DNA of 45,911 nucleotides from Sarea resinae (Eukaryota). The stretch is from positions 372,001 through 417,911 of the forward strand of contig JAPEUD010000014.1 in the NCBI GenBank assembly GCA_026026165.1, in the 5' to 3' direction. Position numbers and translations under genes: made by a program. The notes below the pieces were generated by a model, which was not told where the DNA came from, ran no database searches, and saw only the letters and a program-made list of their open reading frames with translations. This document shows, piece after piece, positions 32,618 through 44,012 of this stretch; positions within the stretch are counted from its first letter, which is position 1; every line of letters begins with the position of its first letter.

Positions 32618-35175
32618 TCAAATCAATCTCTTCAGTGCCTCCACGGCCGCCTCTAAAACGCCCGGATTCTTCTCCCGCATGAGCACGGCTTTCAGAACCT
32701 CGACGCCGCCCTCCTGCTTCACTTTCTCGGTGCCCTGTCGCCCCGCCTCGCCCAACGCACACACAATGTTCTGCACGCACACGACGCCGCGATGCACAAG
32801 GCTTTCGTCATCATGTTCCTCGCAGAGACCCAAGAGGATCTTTACGCCGCGGTCGCGCGCCACGACCGCCTTGACCGCCTCATCCCACTCCGTTAGCATG
32901 GCAAGCGCACCGCCAGCTGCACGGCGCGTAGCCTCGTCTTCGGCATCCGCTAGAGCCAGAAGAATATGGAGTCTGTTGTTTGCGGCGGGGGAACCATCGG
33001 CAAATTTGGCGGTGGTTTCCGCCAAAGCCATGAGGTTGCAGATGAGCTCTACGGCGGCGCGTTGAAGGAGTGGGTTTGAGTGCAGGAGAAGTGATTCTGT
33101 GACGGGCTTAAAGGAGAGTTGGAGGATTAGGTGTCGGGTCGGATCGTCTGTGGAGGCGAGATTGGTGAGGGCTAGGAGGGACTCGAATGTGGGAAGAAGA
33201 TCGCGGGGGCCATTGTCGTCAAAGATACCATCGTCGTCGGAAGAAGGAAGGAGGAAGACGAGCGGACGAATGGCGGACGTGATGGGGAGGGCGGATGAGC
33301 CGAAAATATGAGAAGGGTTGACGGATATGAGTATTCGGGCTAGGGTGTGAGCGGCTGTGCGGCGCGAGACTATATCTGTTGCGGAGGCGGTGGTGTCGGG
33401 AATGGCGGAGTAGGCCTGGAGGATGAGCTTGACCGCCCCCTGTTGAGCCAGAGGACCACGGTTCTTCGAGTCTCTGGAAAGTGAGAGCAGTATAGTGAGA
33501 ATAAGGGAGAGCGCTGTTGGGGAAACCTTTCTGCTGATGGTAAGAAGAAGAGGGACGAGACCTGCATCGAGAACGGCTTTGCAGCGAACTGTCACGGCAG
33601 GATCTTTATTGAGGGGATCCGGCTCGAGATTGACTTTAGATGTGTTCGCGTAGGCTTTAAGTTGGGACAGCCGCTTCTGCTCCTCAGAGAGGTTGGGGAG
33701 GTATGAGGTTATGTTGACGAATATGTTGAGACCGCCGAAGATGATGCTGGAATTTGGGGGGGTATGCTCAAGGGTAGAAATTAAACTCTTGAGAAATGGC
33801 TTGTCTTTCGCAAGTCTCTCTTTTACTGTGGGCTGTAAAGACGTAAATGCAAGGCCTTCTATCGAGCTCTGCTTGTCGTTCACGCTTTCTTTGACCATCA
33901 TCTTTTGGAACATGTCTACCAGTGCATTGACACTTTTGGCTTCTTCCTGCACTCGCTGGTCTTTTCCGGTGCTATTCTCTCCACTGGGGCTCCTAATCTT
34001 AGCCAGTATGAGCGCAGCCATCCCTGGGCTCGGATCATTTCCGTCTTCCAGGATATCCTCCAGCCATTCGGAACAGTACTTCGATATTGCCTCGCGACAT
34101 GCTCGATCGATACAAGCAGCACTCAAAAGTTCCAGGGCAGCATGCTCCGCCTTTGAGCTTTTTAGCTTTTTGTTGACCGTGGACTCCAGCGACGGAACGA
34201 AGCCTTCTGTGAGGAAAAGGGAAGAGGCCATCGATGGTACAATAGGAAAGACGGCTGCCGCAACCGAGAGCGCCGTGATTAATTGATCGTTCGTATGCTT
34301 GGCGATCCGAGAAGTGACGAACTTGGTCAGGAGCGCATGGCCAGCATCCCCTGAGACCTCGAGATACTTTGCCGTAGCAAGAGTGGCCTGGCTTCGTACT
34401 TCTTGACTCCTTCGATTATCCAGTGAAGTCAGAATAGGGTCTAGCGTGTCTTCGTCGATCAGATATTTCAGCTTCTCGGCATCTGCTGCCAGAAGACGTG
34501 CGATTCCCCTCAAAGCTCGACCGGGGTGATCCTGCCCAGCTTCCATGAGCTTAGCAAGGAGTAGCTGAAAAACGTCATGTTCCATACGGTCCCTTGTTTC
34601 TTGTGAAGCCCAGGCCATGGTATCGAGAAGCATCAAAACAAGACCGCCAATGGCTGCATCGCCCTTCTCCCAAAGGCTCTCGAAGACTTGCGGCTGAGAT
34701 TCGTCGATCTGAGTCGCCAGGTATGCTCTTGCCCCTAAGCTTTGACGCAGAATACCACCGACCAATTCATCAGCAGTTGTCTCATCTGCTTCCACTGGCC
34801 GCTCCAGTAGAATCTTTAGACATTGTTCTCCCACGTCGTGTGATATTTGCCCGTTTGACCGTTCCACGAGCCGAAGAGCTTCCTTGCCGGCCGCTGCGTC
34901 CTTCTGCAGCACGAATCTGCGACATAGCTTTGCTAGAGGATCAGCAGCCTCTTCCTGCTGTATCTTTGCGAAGGCCGCCTTGACTTCTTTATTCTCGGGC
35001 GAGATGGACGCGGCCTCACGTAGCAACCGGGCACCTTCCTATCCGACACGAGGTTAGTGATTTGCACATCGATCATGAGCGTCGAGGCCCTAACCTCAAG
35101 TCGATCACGGGAGACTGATTCGAGTGCCCTTTGGGCCAGCTCTTGCGCTCTGGTATCATCCCCGGAGCTGGACAT
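32618..35175 (-). CDS. CRO1: UCS-domain myosin chaperone (Cro1/She4/Rng3/UNC-45 family), ~833 aa
   Basis: Exon 1 35175-35095, intron 35094-35039 (GTTAGG..CTAAC..TAG), exon 2 35038-32618. ARM-type motifs ELLSAACID, IEGLAFTSL, QLKAYAN, RGPLAQQGAVK, LARILISVNP, FESLLALTNLAS, RAAVELICNL, RRAAGGALAMLT, HRGVVC are typical of the UCS domain. Confidence 0.93.
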
Positions 35176-35666: not shown

Positions 35667-37041
35667 ATGAACGCCGTAGACGGCTCCGAACATTATGAAC
35701 GGGAATCAAACGGTAGCACATCCATCTGTTCAACATGTCTGCTCACCTACTGACTCTTCCCCTCAGAACCGCCTCCATCGCTCCTTACCGTCATCCTCGA
35801 CACCAATCCGCACGCCTGGTCCCTGCTCTCCTCCACCCTGCCGCTCTCCAAAGCCATTGCCAACATCCTCGTCTTCATCAACGCTCATCTGGCCTTCAAC
35901 TACGCCAACAAGGTCGCCGTCATAGCCAGCCACTCCCAACGCGCCCAATTCCTCTACCCTTCCCCGCCGTCCGCCTCCACATCTCTCGATCACCATGATG
36001 CCCCCCAACTACCCGCATCCGCTACGGGCCAAGAAGACACCGAGATGGCCGACGCACCTCCGAAACCGAAACTGAAACTCACCCTCAACGGCCGGAAACC
36101 TACGCCTTCCTCCGCCTCTCCAGCAGCTGAAGCCGGCCAGGCCCGCACAACAGACGACGCAAACAAATACCTGCCATTCCGCCTCGTCGAAGAAGAAGTC
36201 ATGTCGAACCTGCGTGCCCTCATCGCCTCCACCACGGCCTCGGATATCTCCACCACGAATAGCACGCAGATGGCGGGCGCGCTGACCCTGGCCCTCAGCT
36301 ATACCAACAAGCAAGCACTGGCCTACACGGAGAGCAATGGCGGCAGCGCCGGCGCCACGGGCGACCGAGGCGGCAACGACGGCCGCGAGCCGGAGAAGGC
36401 GAAACAGCTCCAAAGCCGCATCCTCGTCCTCAGCGTCTCGGGCGACCTGGCATTCCAGTACATACCGGTTATGAATTGCATCTTCGCCGCTCAAAGACAG
36501 GTATGCCTTACTCCCTCCCCCTTGCCCGCCCCCACCCTTGCTCCTCTGGCCTCTCGTGATCCCACACAAGCGCAGCATCTAACCAAGTTCTCCGACCCAG
36601 CGCATCCCCATCGACATTCTCAAAATCGCCGGCGACACGGTATTCCTGCAGCAAGCCTCGGACGCCACACGAGGCATCTACCTACCGCTGGACCCGCGCC
36701 AAGGCCTGCTGCAATACCTGATGATGGCGTACCTGCCGTCGCCACTCACGCGCCAGCACCTGATCCCGCCGACGCAGGTCAACGTCGACTTCCGCGCCGC
36801 GTGTTTCTGCCACAAGCGCGTCGTCGACGTCGGCTACGTCTGCAGCATCTGCCTGAGCATCTTCTGCCAACCCCCTGCCGCCGGCGAGTGCTTGACCTGC
36901 GGCACCCTGCTGGGCGTCGCTGACTATGGCCGCCGAGCTGCTGTTGTTGCCAGGAAGAAGAAGAAGAAGAGGAGACTTGATGGGGCCGGCGGCACGGGCG
37001 GCACGCCGACGCCGACGCCCGGAGGCACACCACTTCCGTGA
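35667..37041 (+). CDS. TFB4: TFIIH core subunit Tfb4 (p34/GTF2H3), ~406 aa
   Basis: Exons 35667-35712, 35767-36500, 36601-37041 (1221 nt). SLLTVILDTNPHAW, VFINAHLAFN, MAGALTLALSY, QYIPVMNCIFAAQ, FLQQASDATRGIY, and C-terminal Zn motif VDFRAACFCH...GYVCSICLSIFC...CLTCG. Confidence 0.96.
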
Positions 37042-37586
37042 AATCTTGATAGAATCGTCGCGGGTTCCGGAGTACAGGCATTTTCTTCTTCTCCACATTC
37101 AAGCGGGCGGGCTCAGGTAGAAAAGGCGCGCATTTTTCTATTATTTCCACTGTTGTTCATATCCTACCAACTAGTCGGAAAGCTAGATCTAAATCTCCAG
37201 CCACATTCAGCATCATAGAGACTCATTTTCAAACTTCAATTCAGTTCGCTTCTCGTTCCAGCCTCTACGTATAGCAACGTATTATGATCAGAGCACTACA
37301 TCACAGTCGATATCAACCAAATTGAAGGAAGCTTCAAGATGGAAAAGCACTCAGATAGAGATATATAACACATCGTATTCCAGACCACCACCACCACCAC
37401 CACCTCGTCCCGTCCTAACTTGGGACACAGCCAAAATCAGACCCACCGACCTCTCAGAGCCATACTTCTCCAACATTTCTAGCTCCTATTCCTAGTCCCA
37501 GCGCCACATTTCCAAGCCATGTCCTTAGATGCTCCTCCTCATCCCCATCGCTCCCCGCCTCTCTCTCTCTCTCTCATCAAAGCCAC

Positions 37587-37646
37587 CTATACACGCAGTT
37601 AGCCGTCTTTCCCAACTGACTCAAAACATAGGCAGGGAAGACTTAT
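37587..37646 (-). other. Terminal 60-nt intron of pre-TER with non-canonical 5' splice site AUAAGU (spliceosomal 3'-end cleavage signal)
   Basis: Minus strand reads ...GAGAAUUUUUUUU|AUAAGUcuucccugcc...acgGCUAACugcguguaUAG. 5'SS at 37646-37641, branch point GCUAAC at 37603-37598, 3'SS UAG ending at 37587. Confidence 0.88.
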
Positions 37647-37656
37647 AAAAAAAATT
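37647..37656 (-). other. Sm/Lsm binding site (AAUUUUUUUU) at the predicted mature 3' end of TER
   Basis: A + U8 run directly abutting the AUAAGU splice donor, the arrangement known for fungal telomerase RNAs. Confidence 0.85.
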
Positions 37657-39806
37657 CTCGAGCCATCCCCTCTCGAAGAGAGAGGACAGCTGACGGCCTC
37701 CCCGCCATCCCGTCTTACATCGCCCCGACCCCTCCCACCACAGGAACCCGCCGTTCTCTCTCTCCCGGTCGAAAAACAGAAGTACCCCGCACCATTTGCC
37801 CCACCGCGTAAAACACCAACGAATTCCAGAAAACACACATGGCAAGCTCGACTCGGGGCGCTTTCACCTTATCGAAACTGTACCACACGAGGAGAGAAGG
37901 ACAGACAAGCGCAAAGCTTTGAGCCTCACTCGAGAGAGGTCCCGCCTTCCACCCTCGTGCCGCCAGCGATAAGGGAACCCCGAAGGTCTTGGTGCAGACC
38001 AGAGGTATGTGTATGAGGTTTTCGTGCTTGTGCTTTTTGGGGAAGTACGGTGAGGGTCGTGGTTGCGGTAGTGAGGGGAGAGAGAGAGAAAGACGGATCC
38101 CCACGAGCTATCCCCGTCGTCAATCCTACTTCTGACATACCTGACCTTCGAAAACCCGCTCGGTCCAGTCCAAACGGTCATCCATATAGTCAACTTTGCT
38201 CTGCCAGGTCGAGCGCGATTTTCAAGCTTCTCTCAAGATGACCGCGCTCTCGAACGGTCGGACTTCCAAACCCTGGTCAAACGCCTTTTTCAAGGAGCTT
38301 TGCGGGGAAAGAACATCTCTCTATTTGTGGTGCAGTACTCTCAGAGACAAGTTTTATGTTTCCTCCCTCGCCTTTCACACGTCCGCACTTGACTCGCTGT
38401 TACGCAAAGCAATGGGACGGCTACTTGGCGAGAGGGCATTGAAAAGCGAACAAAAGACATCCTCAAAAACCGCTTTCGTCTCCCCGTATGAAGGGGGAGG
38501 ATGATGTCCAGCCTGCTGCTCCGAAGAGAGCAAGAGGACAGTGAATGTTGGGGCTCACCGTCGACCCGCGTGCTGAACACGCGAGGAGATGATTGACGCG
38601 GCTGGTCGAAACCTCGTCTCCTTGCAAGAGACGACTACAACTGTGGCTGGAGCCGCATCGTAGGTTTTCTGAGCTGCAGGCTGGGTAGAAAAAGTGGGGT
38701 GGAGAGCAGAGTATTCAAGCAGCCTGGAAAGATGCTTGAAGTGGTAGGGGAGACATACGGGACGTCTTCTCTTTCGCCGCCATGATGCTCTTTGAAGGTT
38801 TTCGATGTGAATAGTGTTGTCCCTTCCACGACCCAAGACCATACAGGTGTTTGATAAAGGGTCGATCGCTTGCATCTTCCTTCTCTCTTCTATCGCCTCA
38901 AAGCCTGCAATGATCAAGAACAACCAGCCCTCTGTCCTGTCAAGATTCAGACGTCCGAAGCAGACGCGTAGCCATGTTTTACAACTCACCCACCAGGGCA
39001 GCGATGCGAGTGTAAAATGATGCAATCAAATGCAGTTCTCTTTTTGTAAGGTCAAGCATCTCGCTACATGTCTAGAAAGAAGCTGCCCAGCCAAGCCTGA
39101 TCCCTGATGGGACCGTGAAGGCCATCTCGGAGGAGGCACGGAGCAGCTTTTCCAGACACGATTCCGACGATTGAATGCTATAGACCATTGCCCCTCAGGG
39201 CGAGATACATGCGTGATGCATTCTTTGGTAGGCAAGCACCACTAATGTGGAATTCGACGTGCTCATGTCTTCGTCTGAAACAGGAAGAGAAGCTTGCAGT
39301 CTCTCACAACGCAGAACCTCGAAAATGATAGAAAAAGAGAGGTCAGACTGTCAAGCACCTTATATCAATACCGATTGGCCCATTTAACGGGTGTCGAAAG
39401 AGCAATGTGTATTCGCCTTCAGAGCTCCGTTGCAGCAGAAAGAATGTGAAGAACCCAAAGACAATCCCAATAATGGGTGCCTGATATCTCCCATCCACTC
39501 TCTCCCGAAGATTTCCACAACGCCACGCATCAGAAAGACGATCTCAAAAGTGACCAGAGTATATGTTCGGCTAGAGGGAATCGACGCGCGCTCTCACAGA
39601 GAGGCTTACCAGACTAGACGCATGAAACACCTCATATTCAAAGGTCCAACAGGACTCCGAACGTCAGACCCTCTTTTCATCCCCCCAGAGAACACGGAAC
39701 TCAGCCTTGCGGCGAGGAAACGACGATCACCAGAGAGCTTAATAGGAAAGATGACAACTATGGACCGCAAAACTGCTTTCCAAAGGAAAGACAACCCAAC
39801 GAGTAC

Positions 39807-39815
39807 TTAGGGTTA
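39807..39815 (-). other. Telomerase RNA template 5'-UAACCCUAA-3' (1.5 copies of TTAGGG complement)
   Basis: Plus strand TTAGGGTTA at 39807-39815, flanked by non-telomeric bases (C and A). It lies one nucleotide 3' of the 3' strand of a strong helix. Confidence 0.88.
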
Positions 39816-40253
39816 AGCTCCGGAACCCATCCTCCCCATACCGCCATTCAATCTTTCGATTGTGACACGCCCGCGGGTGCGCTGGAACTCATTGAGACCA
39901 TGCTATGAGGCTCGAGTAGCAGCTCCCGCCGTACCATGCGCAGGCGGTGATGGGGGGCTGTTAAACATTCCTCGCGCAAGGCTGGAAGATGGGAGCCGGA
40001 AAACTGTGTGGAAAGTGCGCTGCTTTGTGATTACTCGAGAACGAGCGAGAGAATGAGATGGAAGCCGAAGGTTCATTGAGAGCGCGTCTTGAGATGGCGT
40101 GGAACGCGTTCACTGGCGGAGTGAAAGCTGTACTGGATGTCATGTGTAGACTGGAAGTAGAGCGGTCGAAAGATAGATTATCAGAGGGCATGATGCTCAG
40201 AGGATTGACGAAGATGAGGATAGTCGTTGGTGAGAAGGATATGGACGGTGTAT

Positions 40254-40510
40254 GAAGAGAGAAGAGGAAGAAGCGGAAGAAAGAGAGGAAAGTAAACACG
40301 GACAGCTCGAGTGACCGGCTCGAGTGACCGATACGCAGGCGCGTCGCTGACTAAGCAAATTCACCACGCGCTTTCATGTGATCTATCATTTTGCACTTTA
40401 CCGGCCAGGATGACACAACACCAAAGATTCACCCAATCTATCAAGGACTCGGTGCTGTGAAGCATCTAGAATCCCAAAAGCTATATGACAAGTCCGTGGA
40501 GGTCCAAGCC
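40254..40510. promoter_or_regulatory. Short bidirectional promoter region between TER (-) and RTP1 (+)
   Basis: Minus-strand pyrimidine tract 40291-40254 just upstream of the inferred TER 5' end. GTAAACA (forkhead-type) at 40292-40298, perfect 13-bp tandem duplication GCTCGAGTGACCG at 40305-40330, CGCG cores near 40340 and 40367. Confidence 0.55.
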
Positions 40511-43500
40511 ATGCCCCTCAGTGCGGTCGAGGCAGCTTTTGCGAATGCGAAAAGCTTCCTAGCTCCAGTATTAAATCGAGGTATCTGAGATATTGCATGA
40601 ATCGTCAGGCTGTTGATTTGGTTGATAGCTAAGCTAACGAATACCTCAGCGTCGATCGAGAGAGCGCGCTCCAAGTCAATCATCGAATTACTTTCTACTA
40701 ATGCCCAGGTTCATCATGGGGCCGAGTCAAAAGGTCACGTGCTTGAAAAGGCTATCAGCTTGATTCAGAGCATTCACGATGCTTTGAAAGCTGATGCCCA
40801 GGCTGAGAAAATTTTTGAATATGATCCACAGAGCCGCCGAATCGTGTATGCTCTTCTGGACCTAATATCATTGGAGGGTATCTATCCTTCCTTATCTTCG
40901 GGTGTTGGTATACCAATCGAACGTCGAGTCAAGTCTGTATTACTCGCTGGAGTAGTCGCCAAACCAACGACATCAGAATCAGCAGACCGGCATGATCAGG
41001 ATCTGTCGTTACTGAAAAATATCATTGATGCTTCCTCGAATTTCACGGCAGAACAGGGCAAAGGTATCGAGCCAATCATTCGTGATAGGATCCTCGTGGA
41101 CATTATCTGCGGGTCTGCCGAGCTCGCGTTCGGCCCTTTCTCGGACAGCAGCAACAAGGCAAAGTATGCAGCTACGTTCGAGAAACTGTTGGATGAGTAT
41201 GTCTGTCCTTTAATTATAAATCCCATGTATTTTAGAGCAAATCCAAGACTCCAACATCGTCTTTCATGCCTTGAGATTGGCTGAAACATATCATAGTTCA
41301 CCTACGTCTACTCTTCTCCCTATCTTGACCTCCCTTCTAACGCCGACTACGCCGACATGGCTACGCCCCCATTTCTCAACTCCACTCTCTTTGGTGCCGC
41401 TCCGGTCACATGGCGTGCGTCAGACAATAGAATTCATAGCTTCCACCGCCCGAGGTCCACCTCCATTCCAGAACGATAACGTTAATCCTCCATCAGCAAC
41501 AACCTCTACTGTATCACAGGGTCCCTCTTTGCCCATCGAAGCTTTGACACAGGCTTCAAAATTGCTTGCTTCTGTGCCCAGCGCCTTGACGCCTGATCAG
41601 TATTTCTCGCGGATCGCGCCTCAGCTTCTTGATTTACTAGATAGCGAAGCTGGCCCTGGAATGAGCAAAGCAGCAAGCTTTATTATTGGTGGAGGCATAC
41701 TGAATAGAAGGGCGTATGGAGCCCCTGGGACCATTGGATGGCGGCTCTTTGCCCAGCCAATATTGGCGAAGATCGACCCTGGATTGGACATTCAGGCCTC
41801 CATCCCTAATCAACCGGGCCCCGGTATCCACGAGTTTGATACTGTGCTAGTATCTGAGAGTGATCTCAATTTGGCCTTGACAAGGCTCGCTACTCTTATA
41901 ACATCTCACCCCAACCCTGCGCTTGCCAAAAGGCTTTTATCACGGCTGATGTTGCCACTTTGGTCTTTACGTTGCTTTTCCCGAAAGATGGGGAACTCGA
42001 CCTGGTGCGAGCGAGCTTCAAGTCTCTTAGAGACTTACTTCAAGGTTTCCGCCGATGCAGAGCAATTAGGTAAATTTGCAAGACAACTGCTCTGGGATGG
42101 GAGGCCTTCGTGGGAATATGCGTCTACTAAAGGGGGAGGAGTTGAAATTAGACGAACGTCTGATAAGACCACAGCGCCAAAAAATATGGTTGAATATGTT
42201 GAGAGCATTGACGACCGAGTGGACGAGTTCCTCAGACTTACTCAGTCTGGTGCCGTGGACGACGAACGACTTGGCGCCTTCTTCCTGGGTATCACTCGAC
42301 GCTGGCTTCTAGGCATGGAAGAGACGTCACCGTCCCAGCACGTCCTAGAGCCGGCATCTCAAAATTCTACGCAAGACCCAGCACAGATGCTGGTCGATGC
42401 CAAGATCGTCCAAAAAATGCTGGAACAGCAAAAAGAGAAACTCGCAAATAATCCTACACAAATCTTCGAACTCGTAAAGCAGCTCCTGAGTACCTTTGTC
42501 GAAAATCAGAACGCGCGATTTCAACGGAGGAGCAACCTTCAAAACCCGTCACTGTCTAGCCTAGGCAACATCGCCCGCGAAGCTACCGAGGAAGATCCAG
42601 GGGGCGCTGGTGAAGCGGGTTCTGAAGACGAGCCGACAGATATGGCCTCCATCGCTCTCAGTCTCCTCAGCACGATCCTATCTTCTCCTGATCTATCTCT
42701 TACGGAAGAAGACACACGGGTCCTATCCAGCATAGAGCCCTCCCTATCGTATCTCTCCTCTTCAAACAACTCCATCCCTTCATCTCTCTCCATGGCTGCC
42801 ATGAACCTGTCATCGCTCCTGACCCTCCAGGCTTCTATCCCCTCTACAACCTCGTCTTCCCTCAAAGCCTCCGACATCGAAGACCGCAAGACACACCAGC
42901 TCGCTCTGACCTATCTCACCGATGCCCTGCCTCCTGTCCGAGCACAAGGCCTGTCTCTCCTCACCGCTCTTATCTCGTCCCGCTCACCTGTCCTCGATGT
43001 CCCAGCCACCACGATCCTACTTCTCAGCCTGCTCCAAGACGATGACGAGTTCATCTACCTCAACGCCGTGAAAGCTCTCGGCGAGCTCAGCCAGAAACAT
43101 TCTCGGACCATCGTCAAGAATCTGGTAAGCCGGTATGTCGACCGTGAGGAGGAACTTGGACTTGATCAGCGCCTGAGACTCGGTGAGGCTCTTCTAAAGA
43201 CGGCAGAAAGTCTCGGCGAGGCCCTGGTCGGCGACACCGCCACCACGCTTGCAGAAGGCATGATCGCCGTTTCAGGGCGGCGCGGCACGCGGCCCAAAGC
43301 CGCCGCAGAACACGCCCGGCGCATCAACCTGCAAGAACTCCGCAACAAAGAAGCTGCCGATGCGTGGGGCGGAGAATTGCCGGACCTCCCTGCGATGAAC
43401 TCGTCCTCGGACTTGCAAGACGGCGCCCTCGACCGCGAAGAGAATGAAGCCTTATCCGCCATCCTCGCGGGCTGGGAAGGCAACCGCGCCACAGAAGACG

Positions 43501-44012
43501 TCCGGATCCGCACGTCGGCGCTCTCGGTCCTCGGCGTCGCCCTCGAAACCAATATCGCCGGCATCGGCGCCGTCCTCACGTCCACAGCTATCGACCTCGC
43601 CATCTCGATCCTGACGCTTGAGAATACGGGCGAGGAGAAGGCCATCCTCCGCCGAGCCGCGGTGCTGCTTTTCATGAGTCTGCTCAAGGCGCTGGATCGA
43701 GCGCGCGAGGAGGGCCGGAAGCTGGGGTTCGGACTTGCTGGAGAGAGCTTAGGCGATGTCATCAGAGTGCTCGAGTATGTGCGGGCTACTGATGGCGATT
43801 GGATCGTTAAGGGACATGCGGGGGCTGTGGTGGAGAGTCTGGAGGCTTGGAAGGAGAAAAGTTTGGTGTTTGGGATGGCGGAAGGGATGGAGAGGGAGAG
43901 AGGCGGGCATGGTATGGCTCCGCCTATGCTGGGGGAGAGACTGGCGGGTTTGAGAGTGGATCCTACGGGGCAGGGACGCGGCTCCAGGCCACGCATTGAA
44001 GAGATTGAATGA
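40511..44012 (+). CDS. RTP1: Rtp1/Tango6-family HEAT/ARM protein (RNA polymerase II assembly/nuclear import factor), ~1110 aa
   Basis: Exons 40511-40580, 40650-41196, 41297-44012 (3333 nt). LLDLISLEGIYPSL, YFSRIAPQLLDLL, and C-terminal motifs LTDALPPVRAQGL..LLSLLQDDDEFIYLNAVKAL, RLRLGEAL, DVRIRTSALSVLG, LRRAAV, DGDWIVKGHA are characteristic of the RTP1 C1/C2 regions. Confidence 0.88.

Follow-up and report, generated by a model that had tools for sequence, protein, structure and literature searches.

The 45,911-nt stretch of Sarea resinae DNA analysed here (the window; contig JAPEUD010000014.1, positions 372,001 to 417,911) very probably carries the telomerase RNA (TER) gene of this organism, a gene of the Pezizomycotina type on the minus strand of the gap between the genes for Tfb4 and RTP1. 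A TER had been placed at this position by a sequence-only reading of the same DNA. The placement is borne out by three colinear pieces of the Rfam model RF02462, by matches to profiles of related loci with E-values of about 4e-39, and by the presence of all the defining helices. The sequence and pairing elements listed below, and their homology to TER genes, are direct observations; the start of the RNA and the processing of its 3′ end are predictions.

40253-37647, minus strand: predicted mature TER (Rfam RF02462, blastn, nhmmer profiles)
40052-40047 with 38321-38316, minus strand: outer core-enclosing helix UCUCUC/GAGAGA, 6 bp, covarying
40023-40014 with 38339-38332, minus strand: inner core-enclosing helix GCAG-CGC-ACU/AGU-A-CUGC, 4+3 bp, covarying
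40005-39996, minus strand: template boundary helix, 5′ strand AGU-UUU-CCGG (RF02462 alignment, relatives)
39823-39816, minus strand: template boundary helix, 3′ strand CCGG-A-GCU, adjoining the template
39815-39807, minus strand: template 5′-UAACCCUAA-3′, 1.5 repeats, specifying TTAGGG (aligned to the RF02462 template)
39800-39795 with 38552-38547, minus strand: template-closing helix GUUGGG/CCCAAC, covariation by eye
38543-38346, minus strand: pseudoknot domain (RF02462 positions 1192-1381)
38476-38470 with 38449-38443, minus strand: pseudoknot stem A, covarying
38469-38465, minus strand: U5 tract within the pseudoknot, beside the U-A-rich stem
38461-38450 with 38359-38346, minus strand: pseudoknot stem B, crossing stem A
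38436-38431 with 38368-38362, minus strand: pseudoknot inner hairpin, with a 56-nt insert
37959-37886, minus strand: CR4/5-like three-way junction (RF02462 match, relatives, pattern search)
37959-37945 with 37900-37886, minus strand: P5, 14 of 15 pairs, two of them G-U, covarying by inspection
37941-37936 with 37927-37921, minus strand: P6, CCUC/GAGG type
37920, minus strand: junction A between P6 and P6.1
37919-37916 with 37910-37907, minus strand: P6.1 AAGC/GCUU, 4 bp, with the 5-nt loop UUUGC (RF02462 match)
37654-37647, minus strand: U8 tract, an Sm/LSm-like site by its sequence, at the predicted mature 3′ end
37646-37587, minus strand: putative first-step-only intron, 60 nt (splice-site and branch-site sequences)
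37646-37641, minus strand: 5′ splice site AUAAGU
37603-37597, minus strand: branch site GCUAACU, branch A at 37599
ending at 37587, minus strand: 3′ splice site UAUAG

The covariance model RF02462 (Telomerase_Asco; 1858 model positions, gathering score 30 bits) fits the window in fragments only, at about 25-31 bits. One fragment spans the boundary helix and the template (model positions 208-802 against 40025-39450; 30.6 bits, E 2.9e-7, with 39450-40350 scanned alone). With E-value thresholds over 37000-40700, a second fragment covers the pseudoknot (positions 1192-1381 against 38543-38346; 29.4 bits, E 2.7e-6) and a third covers P6/P6.1 (positions 1648-1690 against 37949-37907; 25.3 bits, E 5e-5). 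All three are on the minus strand and colinear with the model. Matches to five other Rfam families (ROSE, ceN109, sR36, MIR2118, TCL6_3) were far under their gathering scores and were taken as chance.

Relatives of the locus were retrieved from metagenome contigs, which were scanned with a degenerate P6/P6.1 pattern derived from the window and from the Rfam consensus. This yielded at least 113 loci (L001-L113), and the counts of listed loci given here refer to these. P6 is of the form CCUC..GAGG in 76 of them, with one additional CCUU variant, and of the form CCCA..UGG in 36; the two types differ through paired changes on both strands. While the Rfam consensus has CCCA/UGG, the window has CCUC/GAGG. 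Each of the 38 listed loci with at least 1900 nt of upstream sequence has exactly one copy of the template string TAACCCTAA on the same strand, located 1022-1868 nt upstream of P6 (median 1460), where about 0.008 copies per locus are expected by chance. In the window this distance is 1871 nt, the largest among the listed loci.

The similarity extends well beyond these short elements. By blastn, the window and L064 are colinear over 40032-38432 (1643 columns, 59% identity, E 1.3e-57), and L065, L068 and L005 also match in the same order. L064, L065 and L068 are the closest among the matches listed, with a colinear template-pseudoknot domain of about 59-66% identity, and they have the P6 type, the U-tract, AUAAGU, GCUAACU and the large size in common with the window. 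Two nhmmer profiles, from 35 and from 50 relatives and with the window row taken out, each matched the whole window once, at 40067-39739 (E 3.5e-39) and at 38612-38311 (E 4.5e-39).

The template is unique: TAACCCTAA occurs in a single copy in the 45.9-kb window, and the template at this position aligns with those of 41 non-identical relatives among the listed loci. It is identical to the 9-nt template of the N. crassa TER (PMC3592445). The boundary helix consists of the pairs 40005-40003 with 39818-39816 and 39999-39996 with 39823-39820, and closes one base before the template. In Neurospora crassa and other Pezizomycotina TERs the boundary helix also adjoins the template (Qi et al. 2012/2013, PMC3592445; RF02462). 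Pair counts for the helices were taken from MAFFT alignments of the window and its relatives. The boundary helix, which the sequence-only reading had correctly singled out, is intact and is paired in 27-36 of 36 sequences per position. It reads CCGG/CCGG in the window and CCGA/UCGG in most relatives, a compensatory change from A-U to G-C.

Two helices enclose the core. Positions of the outer one form a standard pair in 20-27 of 27 sequences, with the variants UCUUUC/GAAAGA and UCCUUC/GAAGGA. The inner one is composed of GCAG (40023-40020) with CUGC (38335-38332) and of ACU (40016-40014) with AGU (38339-38337), and is paired in 21-27 of 27 sequences per position. Its compensatory changes include GCAG/CUGC, GCAC/GUGC and GCGC/GCGC in the first part and ACU/AGU, ACC/GGU and GCC/GGC in the second. 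For the template-closing helix the column counts are blurred because of the alignment register; by inspection, the relatives show GUCGG/CCGAC, GUCAG/CUGAC and UUUUGG/CCAAAA.

The enclosure of the core had originally been described as a long duplex. The enclosure itself stands, in the form of these two covarying helices, but both are short, and the long repeat is not conserved. The sole long inverted repeat in the region (39786-39765 with 38305-38284; 22-nt arms, 77% complementary) was rejected as a conserved enclosing duplex: it crosses the covarying helices and gives no signal of cognate over non-cognate arms. In a crude duplex-energy test with 25 sequences, cognate arms scored -31.10 and non-cognate arms -31.34 kcal/mol, and for the window the cognate arm was outscored by 17 of 24 non-cognate partners. 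The inner part of this non-conserved duplex in the window (39774-39765, minus strand) is a conserved motif, AGUYUYGCGG, that most relatives in either clade share, about 35-50 nt past the template on its 3′ side; the Rfam consensus has it unpaired.

The pseudoknot had likewise been recognized from the sequence, and in addition to the RF02462 match its two crossing stems are paired in most relatives. The inner five pairs of stem A are formed in 46-50 of 50 sequences, with alternation between C-G and U-A and between G-C and A-U. Stem B is largely invariant among the relatives, with one pair alternating between C-G and U-A; eight of its 11 pairs are formed in 42-50 of 49-50 sequences, and the remaining three are off register because the window has a one-base insert. 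The 56-nt insert of the inner hairpin exceeds that of the relatives. No other structure peculiar to the window copy was found. The earlier suggestion that the RNA may carry extra, new structure is thereby reduced to the additional length of this insert.

The P6/P6.1 pattern has a single match in the window and was absent from 100 shuffles, and the proposed P6.1-like hairpin is present with its 4-bp stem and UUUGC loop. Junction A, the base between P6 and P6.1, is needed for TERT binding (review PMC4993307). Among 82 non-identical junction segments from the listed loci, the window included, the P6.1 loop has 4 nt in 40 and 5 nt in 39. The 4-nt form (AAGC-UUUG-GCUU) is confined to the CCUC-type clade among the listed loci, and the window has the 5-nt form, the loop size previously described in this TER family.

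Taken together, the boundary helix, the two core-enclosing helices, the template-closing helix, both pseudoknot stems and P5 are intact in the window, and all of them covary among the relatives except for the largely invariant stem B. Pezizomycotina TERs have the same set of elements in the same order: core-enclosing helices, a pseudoknot with an inner helix, and a vertebrate-like P5/P6/P6.1 domain.

At the 3′ end, the U8 tract, AUAAGU, GCUAACU and UAUAG are all present, in agreement with the Sm site and AUAAGU intron postulated before. As a combined pattern they match the window at this one place, and 100 shuffles gave no match. The complete module is present in 29 of 49 non-identical sequences (the window counted) that extend at least 520 nt beyond P6 on its downstream side, and the intron length in these is 50-73 nt. 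In L064 and L065 the U-tract is accompanied by AUAAGU and GCUAACU, but no YAG lies nearby. In Aspergillus TERs, as in the window, AUAAGU comes immediately after a U-rich tract, and GCUAACU farther on (Kuprys et al. 2013, PMC3603654; Kannan et al. 2015, PMC4299874), and this combination implies that the 3′ end would be formed by the first step of splicing only. A mature 3′ end at 37647, the coordinate given by the sequence-only reading and exactly the last exon base before AUAAGU, is well supported by the sequence. Two repeats lie in the predicted discarded second exon: (GA)n at 37575-37559 (minus strand), 12 nt past the predicted 3′ splice site, and farther downstream (GGT)7 at about 37404-37384 (minus strand).

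For the function of these elements, for transcription and for protein binding, a model can be built on what has been published for Neurospora, Aspergillus and fission yeast. TERT would copy the 9-nt template into TTAGGG repeats, and the helix closing directly 5′ of the template would halt copying at the template end. The two short core-enclosing helices, together with the template-closing helix, would keep the template beside the H-type pseudoknot, in which the U5 tract would sit alongside the U-A-rich stem. The three-way junction, with its 4-bp P6.1 hairpin and the junction A, would act as a second TERT-binding domain. The mature 3′ end would be made by the spliceosome. An A at intron position 1 has been shown to block the second splicing step, with the 5′ exon being released as the mature RNA (PMC4299874). 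In the AUAAGU intron of the window this A would permit the first step and block the second, so that the 5′ exon would be released with the U8 tract at its end, to bind Sm/LSm proteins. The locus leaves the understanding of how telomerase RNA works unchanged. Apart from its unusual length it is an ordinary TER of a well-known kind, of modest interest for that size and for exposing a gap in the coverage of Rfam.

Several observations weigh against the assignment. At the gathering threshold, a search of the whole 45.9-kb window against Rfam gave no match. Two of the three RF02462 pieces (29.4 and 25.3 bits) are under the gathering score, and the P6/P6.1 piece was absent from the Rfam output when 37500-38350 was scanned alone. 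The likeness of P6/P6.1 among the relatives exists by construction, this being the pattern used for their retrieval; the other features are independent of it. The profile alignments had been built with the window present and its row was deleted later, which introduces a small bias. Finally, upstream of about 40090, the window has no significant similarity (z at most 1.7) in 10 of 11 comparisons with relatives.

The poor Rfam scores are put into perspective by a sensitivity control, in which 20 metagenomic loci were searched at the gathering threshold. RF02462 was detected in all six CCCA-type loci, in the case of L032 over model positions 1-1858 with 1229 bits. Among the 14 CCUC-type loci it was detected in six, as pseudoknot fragments of 84-166 nt with 31.6-44.5 bits, and missed in eight (L001, L004, L005, L017, L034, L044, L049 and L069). 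Given these misses, and the detection of all CCCA-type loci, the marginal scores of the window are typical of its clade. RF02462 appears to have been built mainly from the CCCA-type clade. The statement that routine annotation misses such genes therefore applies both to the window, where the run at the gathering threshold was empty, and to the eight missed among the 14 loci of the same type in this control. It follows that RF02462 under-detects a whole clade of filamentous-fungus TERs, and the approximately 75 related loci with the P6 type of the window are material for a wider and better model. For the window itself, the result is a confident annotation of an essential non-coding gene, one that goes unreported in a standard Rfam run.

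The start of the RNA is less clear than its end. Similarity to the relatives starts at 40091 (L005), 40067 (nhmmer) or 40058 (L068). For the leader, 40420-40060 was aligned locally with 11 relatives and the scores were compared with those of shuffled sequences; the exception to the negative result given above is L069 with a z of 4.4. A likeness around CACCAAC in the leader, seen by eye, was dropped, the alignments being no better than shuffles save for L069. Model position 208 of RF02462 corresponds to 40025 in the window, and the full-length match of the Sordariomycete-like locus L032 begins 420 nt upstream of its template (419 versus 839). From these two values the start of the TER is extrapolated to about 40230-40250 (about 40232 by the Rfam model), and by this analogy a start at 40253 is plausible. 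Counted from 40067 to 37647, the TER would measure at least about 2.42 kb; about 2.6 kb is probable.

It might be argued that the TER gene is real and the RNA shorter, with a 5′ end at about 40070-40100, shortly before the outer core-enclosing helix, and a length of about 2.42-2.45 kb. The late onset of similarity to the relatives, and the sequence without significant conservation upstream of it, speak for such an RNA. On the other hand, the analogy to L032 and the model start at position 208 lead one to expect an unaligned, variable leader of about 200 nt, and there is a pyrimidine-rich block at about 40290-40250, where the start had been set originally. We consider the shorter RNA unlikely, but it is the strongest of the competing explanations.

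A TER of about 2.6 kb would exceed the published sizes of 2049 nt for N. crassa and of 2425 nt for M. graminicola, the latter then called the largest known (PMC3592445), and would shift the known size range of TERs slightly upward. The description of the TER as long for the group holds against these published sizes; it does not hold against the closest listed relatives, which are similarly large and have longer distances from the template to the 3′ end. From the template to the splice site there are 2169 nt in the window, 2203 nt in L064 and 2297 nt in L065, and from P6 to the 3′ end 298 nt in the window as opposed to 424 nt in L064 and 429 nt in L065. The template-pseudoknot and pseudoknot-P6 spacings of the closest listed relatives are near those of the window. 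From the template to the U-tract of the pseudoknot there are 1344 nt in the window, compared to 737-813 nt in Sordariomycete-like loci.

The stretch of about 1.24 kb that separates the pseudoknot from the template-closing helix is alignable among relatives, and may therefore carry lineage-specific protein-binding arms that are missing from the RF02462 model. Tentatively, the TER of the window and those of L064 and L065 could represent a clade of the longest TERs known (at least about 2.6 kb), with the extra length mainly in this stretch, a possibility to which we give slightly less than even weight. If true, the TER size of this clade exceeds the 2425-nt record reported in 2012.

A duplicated or retired TER copy, with the working gene elsewhere in the genome, is very improbable, as the template and the junction A are intact together with all conserved helices and the whole 3′ module, and none of the 49 template-bearing listed loci has a second template. 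Least of all do we favor a similarity due to chance or composition, or a protein-coding gene or unrelated long non-coding RNA: the template by itself is weak evidence (at least one match to TAACCCTAA in 12 of 100 shuffles) and open reading frames (ORFs) in the gap reach 156 aa, but the profile matches at E-values of about 4e-39 and elements that are colinear across 2.4 kb oppose it, and on these sequence comparisons (blastn colinearity and nhmmer profiles) this explanation is effectively refuted, and a Pfam search of six gap ORFs of 102-156 aa gave no match at E-values up to 0.1, in line with the original claim that the gap has no credible ORF.

The genes on either side of the TER, identified as such by the sequence-only reading, were both confirmed by Pfam:

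36045..36923, plus strand: last large ORF of Tfb4 (Pfam Tfb4, E 3.1e-24), convergent with the TER 3′ end
40511..44012, plus strand: RTP1 (Pfam), divergent from the TER, with a probable ATG at 40511

The Pfam domains RTP1_C1 and RTP1_C2 are matched by ORFs that start at 40613 and 41271 and run to 44012. Upstream of Tfb4, an 802-aa ORF with an UNC45-central domain (32618-35026, minus strand) resembles the She4/UNC-45 type of myosin chaperone.

The question had been raised whether known TER loci are also flanked by TFB4 and RTP1. This is not the case for the Aspergillus TERs, where the neighboring genes named in PMC3603654 are others than these two. In the listed metagenomic loci, including the closest relatives L064, L065 and L068, tblastn with the Tfb4 and RTP1 pieces of the window gave no match at E 1e-4 among the 113 loci; this carries little weight because the flanks of the loci extend to 2 kb at most.

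Two short sequences were noticed upstream of the TER. At 40348-40340 (minus strand), AGCGACGCG agrees at 8 of 9 positions with CRCGDCGCG, a motif proposed upstream of Aspergillus TERs (PMC3603654), and was given no weight. At 40330-40305 (minus strand), in the stretch of about 260 nt that separates the RTP1 ATG from the likely TER start, the 13-mer CGGTCACTCGAGC occurs as a perfect tandem pair. Judging from its sequence and position, this pair could be a promoter element shared by TER and RTP1.

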